Virus record (IMG/VR): IMGVR_UViG_3300031994_000074 | Length of the DNA stretch: 64,000 bases | Strand: one strand, 5' to 3' | Source: an uncultured virus (IMG/VR IMGVR_UViG_3300031994_000074) | Taxonomy: Duplodnaviria; Heunggongvirae; Uroviricota; Caudoviricetes | Shown here: positions 55,599-55,747 of the stretch, piece by piece | How positions within the stretch are numbered: position 1 is the stretch's first letter | Layout: each line of letters starts with the position of its first letter | The notes under the pieces: model-generated | Database searches by the model: none | What the model was told of the DNA's origin: nothing | What the model saw: the letters and a program-made list of their open reading frames with translations, nothing else | Made by a program: the position numbers and the translations under genes

Positions 55599-55747
55599 TG
55601 GTGTCCGCGGAACGAATTGAACGTTCTCACACGAGATGCATTACTATAGCTGCAAATCGTGTTTTCACCGCGTCCTGGATATCCTCTTTCTTCCCACACA
55701 GCGCTATATCGGTTTACTTTGGACACCCATTCTGCCTGATCGCGGAC
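55599..55747 (-). ncRNA. tRNA-like RNA (149 nt) with acceptor stem, T arm and CCA but a non-tRNA middle
   Basis: GTCCGCG/CGCGGAC-A-CCA; GAACG-TTCAATT-CGTTC. Confidence 0.65.

Follow-up and report, generated by a model that had tools for sequence, protein, structure and literature searches.

A probably non-decoding tRNA-like RNA among the Y RNAs that precede the RlaP and Rsr genes of a gut phage

The window analysed here is the whole 64,000-nucleotide stretch of the uncultured virus record IMGVR_UViG_3300031994_000074. In this window, we found a tRNA-like RNA of 149 nt, here called RNA A, that is a genuine, selectively maintained structured RNA gene, as indicated by its fold z-score and by the conservation of its base pairs. 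RNA A is related to known tRNA mimics but differs from them in its build and in the genes with which it is associated. It most likely serves a cassette formed by RlaP and Rsr as an accessory, tRNA-like RNA that does not decode, a role that we read from its genomic context and hold with middling confidence. The window itself carries terminase, tape-measure, tail-fibre, holin, integrase, and repressor genes and is a temperate tailed phage, a siphovirus-type gut phage. The parts of RNA A are as follows.

55747 to 55599, minus strand, read 5′ to 3′: RNA A, 149 nt, tRNA-like, a predicted four-way junction and then ACCA
55741..55747, minus strand: 5′ strand of the acceptor stem, GUCCGCG, nt 1-7, with 7/7 Watson-Crick pairs to 55603-55609
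55665..55739, minus strand: long irregular arm, nt 9-83 (75 nt), at the place of the D arm, from the predicted fold and comparison with a related locus (L008)
55629..55662, minus strand: hairpin ACACGA...UCGUGU, nt 86-119 (34 nt), at the place of the anticodon arm
55610..55626, minus strand: T arm GAACG-UUCAAUU-CGUUC, nt 122-138, read from the sequence
55599..55609, minus strand: 3′ strand of the acceptor stem, CGCGGAC (nt 139-145), discriminator A146, and encoded CCA (147-149)

The fold predicted by RNAfold is a four-way junction of the acceptor stem, the long arm, the hairpin, and the T arm. Its minimum free energy was −52.9 kcal/mol (z = −3.84), and 0/200 shuffled sequences folded equally well. 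The long arm consists of three helices (9-14/77-83, 19-27/64-72, and 36-43/48-55) with two purine-rich internal loops and the apical loop GCGC. The hairpin consists of a 6-bp stem, a 2x2 internal loop, a 4-bp stem, and a 10-nt loop with the palindrome CUAUAG. The T arm carries G53:C61, U54, U55, C56, and A58 in tRNA numbering. A stretch of 114 nt (nt 8-121) that is not tRNA-like separates the 5′ acceptor strand from the T arm. The sequence-only reading of this element had described a 7-bp acceptor stem with discriminator A and CCA, a T arm with TTCAATT, and a foreign middle of about 110 nt including the hairpin ACACGA...TCGTGT, and all of these parts were recovered in our analysis.

To study the conservation of RNA A, related loci (numbered with the prefix L) were gathered with the neighbouring Rsr protein as bait, which gave 7 IMG/VR and 54 metagenome loci (n = 61). 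L008 and L009, which are mutually identical over the RNA A region, carry a copy that is 92% identical to the window. There were 12 substitutions between L008 and the window, 10 of them in predicted helices, and 0/43 pairs were broken. Two pairs were altered on both sides (19/72, U-A to A-U; 94/111, U-A to C-G), and six further pairs were altered on one side into wobble or Watson-Crick pairs. The acceptor stem of L008 has two pairs turned into G-U or U-G wobbles and none lost, and its T arm is unchanged. When the same numbers of transitions and transversions were placed at random, only 0.3% of 200,000 trials kept all 43 pairs; among the placements with at least 10 substitutions in helices, 0/10,965 did so.

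A covariance model (R1) detected one further copy, at the far end of the IMG/VR contig L063 (38.8 bits). All 22 comparable pairs of this copy are standard (long-arm helix, both hairpin helices, and T arm), and 13 of them are changed on both sides relative to the window. For instance, the 9-bp helix of the long arm retains 7/7 aligned pairs with five changed on both sides, the hairpin retains 10/10 pairs with seven changed on both sides, and the T arm (GUACG-UUCGAUU-CGUAC) has one pair changed on both sides. Conservation in this comparison extends to the T loop, to ACCA, and to the junctions GGUGAAA and GA, and ACCA is retained in L008 as well. The global alignment with R1 forces a mismatched acceptor stem at nt 17-23 of L063, which could be taken as a degenerate acceptor. 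However, we rejected this because the first 16 nt of the copy fit the 5′ strand of the long arm with perfect pairing. Thus, the L063 copy is best read as cut off about 20 nt into the RNA by the contig end, which leaves L008 as the one close comparison that supports the acceptor stem and the base of the long arm. Two further lineages therefore carry RNA A with pair-preserving and compensatory changes, so that it is not a unique decayed pseudogene.

The geometry of the hairpin (6 bp, 2x2 internal loop, 4 bp, and a loop of 9-10 nt) persists in L063 despite near-complete turnover of the sequence. In addition, the hairpin loop always holds a 6-nt self-complementary sequence, which is CUAUAG in the window and L008 and CCAUGG in L063, and both differences between them are just those that preserve self-pairing. 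The probability of such a palindrome in two random loops of these sizes is about 0.5%. GCGC is also present in the apical loop of the long arm in all three variants. These loop sequences suggest loop-loop (kissing) contacts, possibly in homodimers. A heterotypic pairing of the palindromic loop with the 5′ untranslated region of RlaP was dropped, because L063 alone shows it and the window and L008 do not.

Several other searches returned no further copy of RNA A. R1 found none elsewhere in the 61 gathered loci, nor in two further RlaP loci (L062 and L065), nor in 151 genomes (0/151) from the family of a metagenome-assembled genome (MAG) with a related RlaP, the last search being run without a positive control. 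Searches with nhmmer and blastn against the 7 IMG/VR Rsr loci gave no match to RNA A, and three DNA patterns run over IMG/VR gave no match or just the L063 and L004 contigs again. Among the INPHARED phages, nothing covered more than 8% of the 2.4-kb RNA array in which RNA A lies, and the matches were tRNA pieces only.

Compared with a tRNA (RF00005), RNA A has the acceptor stem, the discriminator, and CCA, together with a complete T arm (5-bp stem, G53:C61, and a 7-nt loop of U54 U55 C56 R57 A58). The tRNA D arm with U8, A14, and G18G19 is absent: position 8 is A, and the irregular arm stands there. Instead of an anticodon arm with a 5-bp stem, a 7-nt loop, and U33, there is the hairpin with its larger loop. 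RNA A cannot decode, since it has no anticodon loop, and its would-be anticodon covaries with its pairing partner. ARAGORN at default settings, with and without introns, made no call on RNA A, just as the sequence-only reading had expected. Rfam gave no match on RNA A even at E ≤ 10 over a 371-nt stretch, so that no catalogued family accounts for it. Furthermore, we scanned the window and the 61 loci on both strands for a perfect 7-bp acceptor stem with a 5-bp T arm and a U.C.A loop. The matches ending in NCCA were only called tRNAs, tmRNAs, RNA A and its copies, a 133-nt tRNA-like RNA of L035 and L038, and spurious partners, that is, alternative longer 5′ partners of the tRNA and tmRNA 3′ ends; the other long matches had no CCA.

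At 80% thresholds in intron mode, ARAGORN did report a tRNA-Ala (tgc) with a 124-nt intron, and the sequence UUUGCAG looks like the anticodon loop of a tRNA-Ala. RNA A might thus be an intron-containing or decaying tRNA gene, for example a tRNA-Ala(UGC) with a large intron, which the sequence-only reading had named as a case that would undo its proposal. However, this model takes its D arm from the upstream Y RNA and requires a shifted acceptor stem with just 5/7 pairs. L008 retains RNA A though its different upstream Y RNA lacks a D arm, and where the window has the putative anticodon UGC, L008 has CGU, with a compensating change at nt 111. Moreover, ARAGORN is silent by default in both modes, and no substitution disrupts a helix. 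For the borrowed D arm, the 5/7 acceptor stem, and the evidence from L008, we rejected the tRNA-Ala reading, and an intron-containing or decaying tRNA gene is very improbable.

RNA A is the second-to-last RNA of a row on the minus strand and is followed by a conserved leader RNA and by the RlaP and Rsr genes, all on one strand. It lies 922 nt upstream of rsr, with RlaP between them.

55500..55596, minus strand: leader RNA of about 95 nt, stem-closed and ending in a U-run, from its fold and its recurrence at related loci
54691..55425, minus strand: RlaP-family Pol-beta nucleotidyltransferase, 244 aa (Pfam PF10127, 30.8 bits against a cut-off of 23; PHROG nucleotidyltransferase match)
53247..54677, minus strand: Rsr/Ro60 orthologue, 476 aa (Pfam TROVE, E = 1.9e-39; Ro60 vWA domain), scoring far under the cut-off of the NCBIfam Rsr model

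RNA A was present in exactly those loci that have both RlaP and Rsr, namely the window, L008, L009, and L063 (4/4). These four loci represent three distinct Rsr sequences, as L009 repeats L008 and its Rsr is cut. Full-length Rsr with 1.1 kb or more of sequence upstream was available at 19 distinct loci, of which three had RlaP and RNA A and 16 had neither. RNA A was also absent from both RlaP loci without Rsr, L062 and L065 (Oscillospiraceae MAG). This RlaP subfamily was found in 1/399 scored genomes of the class of the MAG, in one genome-contig locus, and in one distant phage record (31% identity). In the Rsr tree, L063 with its two elements groups as sister to L025/L031, where both are missing (support 95/95); the window and L008 lie elsewhere within the same 7-member clade. 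Since the loci with RlaP and RNA A do not form one Rsr clade, the two elements were gained or lost together at least twice. In the loci without RNA A, the final Y RNA often has ...ACCA at its end and borders directly on the leader, which in turn borders on rsr. Because Y RNA, leader, and rsr are contiguous there, RNA A and RlaP can be seen to flank the conserved leader. The co-occurrence is compatible with a functional link of RNA A to the combination of RlaP and Rsr, and also compatible with exchange of the whole block as a cassette.

Nine distinct sequence contexts have a leader sequence related to that of the window in the corresponding position (13 loci, counting duplicates and the window). 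It occurs in L004, L008/9, L011, L023/24, L025/30/31, L027, and L063, immediately before RlaP or rsr. In the fold, the outer stem of the leader has 13 pairs, including GAGCAUUUGCG/CGCGGAUGCUC, and this stem differs in L004 and L027. The outer stem varies across loci yet pairs, as in GAGCAUUUGCG/CGCGGAUGCUC versus AAACGCG/CGCGUUU. The leader RNA is likely the terminator of the array, and it is possibly a regulatory leader of RlaP/rsr.

Two YrlA-like Y RNAs stand in the same row as RNA A, one of them directly upstream of it. The gathering score of the Rfam YrlA model is 69, and the docking hidden Markov model (HMM) was built from the Rsr-docking strand of related loci.

57640..57781, minus strand: Y1, YrlA-like, the first RNA of the array (Rfam YrlA, 35 bits; docking HMM, E = 2.6e-8), beginning about 7 nt past a −10 box
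55754..55925, minus strand: Y2, YrlA-like, directly upstream of RNA A (Rfam YrlA, 31.7 bits, E = 3.6e-5; docking HMM, E = 1.2e-8)

Y2 consists of a basal stem GACGCAG/CUGCGUC, a docking strand CAUUGCAG..GGUUACUUCG, a T arm, and a D arm, and a gap of only 6 nt (AUACCU) separates it from G1 of RNA A. The docking strand of this clade has the consensus GCGG-YAKUGYAG-N4-5-GGUUACUUCG, with 64 unique instances over the related loci. There were at most five instances per locus and 2-5 in most loci with enough upstream sequence; all were on the rsr strand, and all but one (L012) were upstream of rsr. A scan with the motif GNCGAA gave 163 matches against 201 expected by chance. In several clade Y RNAs, we also observed an encoded terminal ...ACCA following the basal stem, which looks as though the docking stem served as an acceptor-like end as well.

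Bacterial Y RNAs that lie next to rsr and contain tRNA-like modules are described in parts of Chen et al. 2014 (PMC4201824), and passages of that paper and of PMC12135203 report tandem Y RNAs beside rsr. YrlA (RF02553), as presented in the relevant parts of Chen et al. 2014, resembles RNA A in that it adjoins rsr/Ro60, occurs among tandem small RNAs, and has a tRNA-like module with a canonical T arm. Furthermore, tRNA-processing enzymes likely handle both RNAs: for YrlA of M. smegmatis, cleavage by RNase P and addition of CCA are described in a section of PMC4201824. However, YrlA is circularly permuted, its ends form the Ro-docking stem, its "acceptor" is a closed hairpin, and it has a D arm. 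In contrast, the ends of RNA A form a true acceptor stem with ACCA, and RNA A has no D arm and no clade docking motif. RNA A thus shares with YrlA the position adjacent to rsr. It has neither the end-paired docking stem (GNCGAAN0-1G in Chen 2014; YAKUGYAG-N4-5-GGUUACUUCG in the clade) nor the permuted order of T arm, closed acceptor-like hairpin, and D arm, being unpermuted, and the Rfam YrlA model gave no match on 55599-55747 at E ≤ 10.

RNA A could nevertheless be an unpermuted Y RNA that docks Rsr through its long arm in a non-standard binding mode, with the tRNA-like end as an effector module. Its place within a Y RNA array beside rsr would fit this, and the clade does have unpermuted tRNA-like RNAs with the docking motif in the anticodon arm (L035:3720-3852 and L038). 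A further point in favour comes from Yrn1 of D. radiodurans. [quoted passage not shown] On the other side, the docking HMM finds Y1 and Y2 (E of about 1e-8) and misses RNA A at E ≤ 100, so RNA A is not a clade Y RNA of the standard kind. In addition, YrlA gave no match at E ≤ 10, and RNA A is missing in 16/16 Rsr loci without RlaP. We therefore regard a Y RNA of this non-standard sort as rather unlikely.

The unpermuted Y RNA of L035 and L038 deserves a comparison of its own.

L035:3720-3852 and L038:2163-2295: unpermuted tRNA-like Y RNA, 133 nt, with a perfect 7-bp acceptor stem, a D arm, a T arm, and GCCA

In this RNA, a long arm with the docking motif GGUUACUUCG replaces the anticodon arm, and it forms an unpermuted counterpart of YrlA. 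It resembles RNA A in its real acceptor stem, T arm, and NCCA, in its position upstream of rsr, and in the lack of an ARAGORN call. However, it keeps the D arm and carries the docking motif, and RNA A has neither.

What RNA A might do can be outlined from its position and its predicted shape. One transcript of about 2.3 kb would start at a promoter before Y1 and end at the terminator or leader RNA. The acceptor stem stacked on the T arm, together with ACCA, would let host tRNA enzymes excise RNA A: RNase P would cleave ahead of G1, and trimming from the 3′ side would halt at the encoded CCA. RNA A could then serve as the RNA partner (adaptor, gate, or regulator) in an RlaP and Rsr (Ro60) cassette for repair or surveillance. 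Its tRNA-like end may be shown to RlaP or to another enzyme that recognises tRNA ends, and RNA A perhaps links that enzyme to Rsr, as Y RNAs tether effectors. Excerpts of PMC12776372 report that RlaP adds 1-2 nucleotides to RNA 3′-OH ends and prefers mimics of cleaved tRNA, and parts of PMC7824862 describe RlaP as widespread among phages, together with RNA ligases. A bolder version of this proposal, which we consider rather unlikely, takes RNA A as the dedicated RNA subunit of a new phage ribonucleoprotein, in which the tRNA-like end engages RlaP and the two arms position or gate the enzyme. In such a particle, the arms may bridge RlaP to the Ro60 ring, or the hairpin loops may form a symmetric kissing-loop dimer.

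The sequence-only reading had proposed a decoy or a new class of non-coding RNA. The second idea stands as far as RNA A is a structured RNA with the top half of a tRNA and a non-tRNA middle that matches no catalogued family. The first fares less well: because RNA A stands within a Y RNA array and immediately precedes RlaP and Rsr, a role in RNA repair or quality control is likelier than a free-standing decoy. As a decoy, RNA A would be a sponge for host factors that recognise the acceptor, the T arm, or CCA (e.g., tRNA-end-modifying toxins), or it would be charged and bound by EF-Tu without decoding. In agreement with this, all variants keep the 12-bp acceptor/T minihelix intact together with ACCA, and minihelices do serve as substrates of RNase P, the CCA enzyme, and some synthetases. 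However, a simple minihelix decoy has no need of two large arms under structural selection. The 3′ acceptor strand varies at positions 69-71 between lineages (CGCGGAC, CGUGGGC, and CGCUUGC), so that no conserved synthetase identity set is evident, and the window copy has no G3:U70. In our opinion, a decoy is unlikely.

A further possibility is that RNA A is a processing signal only, that is, a tRNA-shaped punctuation mark that recruits RNase P and 3′ enzymes to free the Y RNA and the leader. All units of the array end in an acceptor-like stem with ACCA, the gap from Y2 to G1 is just 6 nt, and other loci offer at least four contexts with a Y RNA whose terminal ...ACCA stands right before the leader. 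Against this, the loci without RNA A manage with Y RNA, ACCA, and leader alone. Furthermore, the hairpin geometry and the loop palindrome outlast near-complete turnover of the sequence, which indicates selection on more than the minihelix. A pure processing signal is thus quite improbable.

Several points weigh against an accessory role of RNA A in the RlaP/Rsr cassette and should be noted. First, RNA A is without the clade docking strand (no match at E ≤ 100 to the HMM of 64 unique instances), and so binding of Rsr is not indicated. Second, only three distinct RNA A sequences are available, one of them partial, so that only L008 supports the acceptor stem and the long-arm base by comparison. 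Third, the co-occurrence with RlaP may be plain linkage, with a block of RNA, leader, and RlaP exchanged between conserved flanks, and the numbers of loci are small (3, 2, and 16). Fourth, elements B and C, which are likewise long tRNA-like RNAs of the array, are found at places that have no RlaP close by; such RNAs thus need not be specific to RlaP. Finally, the contigs of 4 gut metatranscriptome runs leave 55599-55747 uncovered. One of these runs gave exact contig matches to the tmRNA and to 56686-56940, and most of the remaining matches were conserved tRNA pieces of other organisms.

The row of RNAs to which RNA A belongs covers about 2.3 kb of the minus strand and reads, in order, Y1, tRNA-Tyr, transfer-messenger RNA (tmRNA), element B1, element C, tRNA-Gly, tRNA-Met, tRNA-Asn, Y2, RNA A, and leader RNA. 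ARAGORN called four tRNAs and one tmRNA nearby. The members not listed above, and the promoter, are as follows.

57788..57817, minus strand: strong sigma-70-like promoter, TTGACA-18-TATTAT with TG, 11/12 positions, as a consensus match only
56954-57329, minus strand: tmRNA, from ARAGORN and Rfam
56531-56694, minus strand: element B1, 164 nt
45143-45288 and 45367-45563, plus strand: two further copies of element B in the window
L062:~400-560 and L065:~720-905: element B in related loci
~56161-56301, minus strand: element C, conserved between the window and L023/L024 (L023:207-349; L024:2020-2162)

The promoter at 57817-57788, judged from its consensus, is likely the start of the array transcript. 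Phage tmRNAs were found in the window (56954-57329, minus strand), L008:34-396, L024:1382-1736, and L002:4074-4422, and always in a Y RNA array. Their tags end in ...KAA (DEDYSYGELKAA, DEDEIYGELKAA, and AEPKLKAA), and bacterial tmRNA tags usually end in ...LAA. Element B is a family of RNAs of 145-200 nt without an Rfam match, with three copies in this phage. Its ends are like those of tRNA-Leu, with a 6-bp acceptor stem, UG, and a D arm GCGG-AAUAGGUAGAC-GC whose stem covaries. The T arm is unusual (UGAGG-UGCAAAU-CCUCA), and the middle is highly variable (95-150 nt). Two of the copies sit behind the tail-fibre gene and ahead of a terminator, and the copies of L062 and L065 lie upstream of RlaP operons. 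Element C is a tRNA-like RNA of about 140 nt with an acceptor-like stem and the T-arm loop UUCAAUU, just upstream of tRNA-Gly. In addition, the gene-free stretches of the array at 56700-56950 and 57330-57545 (both minus strand) contain T-arm-like hairpins, such as GGGG-UUCGAGU-CCCC near 56890, and other stems. The open reading frames on the opposite strand over the array had no Pfam match. The neighbouring proteins of 616, 340, 96, and 83 aa had no NCBIfam match, and the three of them scanned with Pfam had none there either; the protein of 616 aa had no match in PDB.

Two other known RNAs can be compared with RNA A. The tRNA-like domain of tmRNA (RF00023) is similar in that an acceptor stem, a T arm, and CCA close a large non-tRNA body. 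However, RNA A has no G3:U70 (3:70 is C-G), no tag frame, and no series of pseudoknots, and its length is 149 nt versus about 375 nt. ARAGORN in tmRNA mode at 80% gave only an implausible permuted call of 548 nt.

Meanwhile, species 1 RNA of phage T4 (rnaC, 139 nt) is like RNA A in its size and in its predicted layout, in which an acceptor-like terminal stem is joined by a long arm, a hairpin, and a canonical T arm. It is a stable RNA, the last in the T4 tRNA cluster, and its T arm directly precedes the 3′ terminal strand. Its predicted fold has z = −4.40. Unlike RNA A, it has two U-U mismatches in the terminal stem and no encoded CCA. We detected no sequence or profile homology between the two RNAs: R1 gave rnaC 11.5 bits and the T4 tRNAs 10.5-11.7 bits. 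As rnaC scores no better than these tRNAs, the likeness is an analogy and not a demonstrated homology. The 8-kb T4 stretch around the cluster has no gene annotated as Rsr/Ro60, and to our knowledge T4 has no Rsr/Ro60 at all. The function of species 1 RNA was still unknown in 2010 according to the relevant portion of a review of that year (PMC3014915).

In full-text searches on RlaP, Rsr/Ro60, Y RNA, and T4 species 1, we found no unpermuted tRNA-like RNA that is free of the docking motif and tied to RlaP, with the supplementary phage Y RNA lists of Chen et al. 2014 lying outside this coverage. Loci of Ro60 and Y RNAs are the best-known home of tRNA mimics, and the described ones are circularly permuted and dock Ro60. 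RNA A keeps a true acceptor end with CCA, drops the docking motif, and travels with the end-repair enzyme RlaP. In addition, T4 species 1 RNA gains a structural counterpart with an informative genomic context. If RNA A proves to be only a processing signal or a redundant scaffold, it will be a useful annotation and no more. If it forms the RNA subunit of a ribonucleoprotein, it would mean RNA-guided control over which damaged RNA ends get rebuilt during infection. If RNA A partners RlaP or links RlaP to Ro60, it would be the first proposed RNA cofactor for the RlaP family, and this partnership would provide a handle on how phages counter the tRNA-cleaving defences of their hosts.

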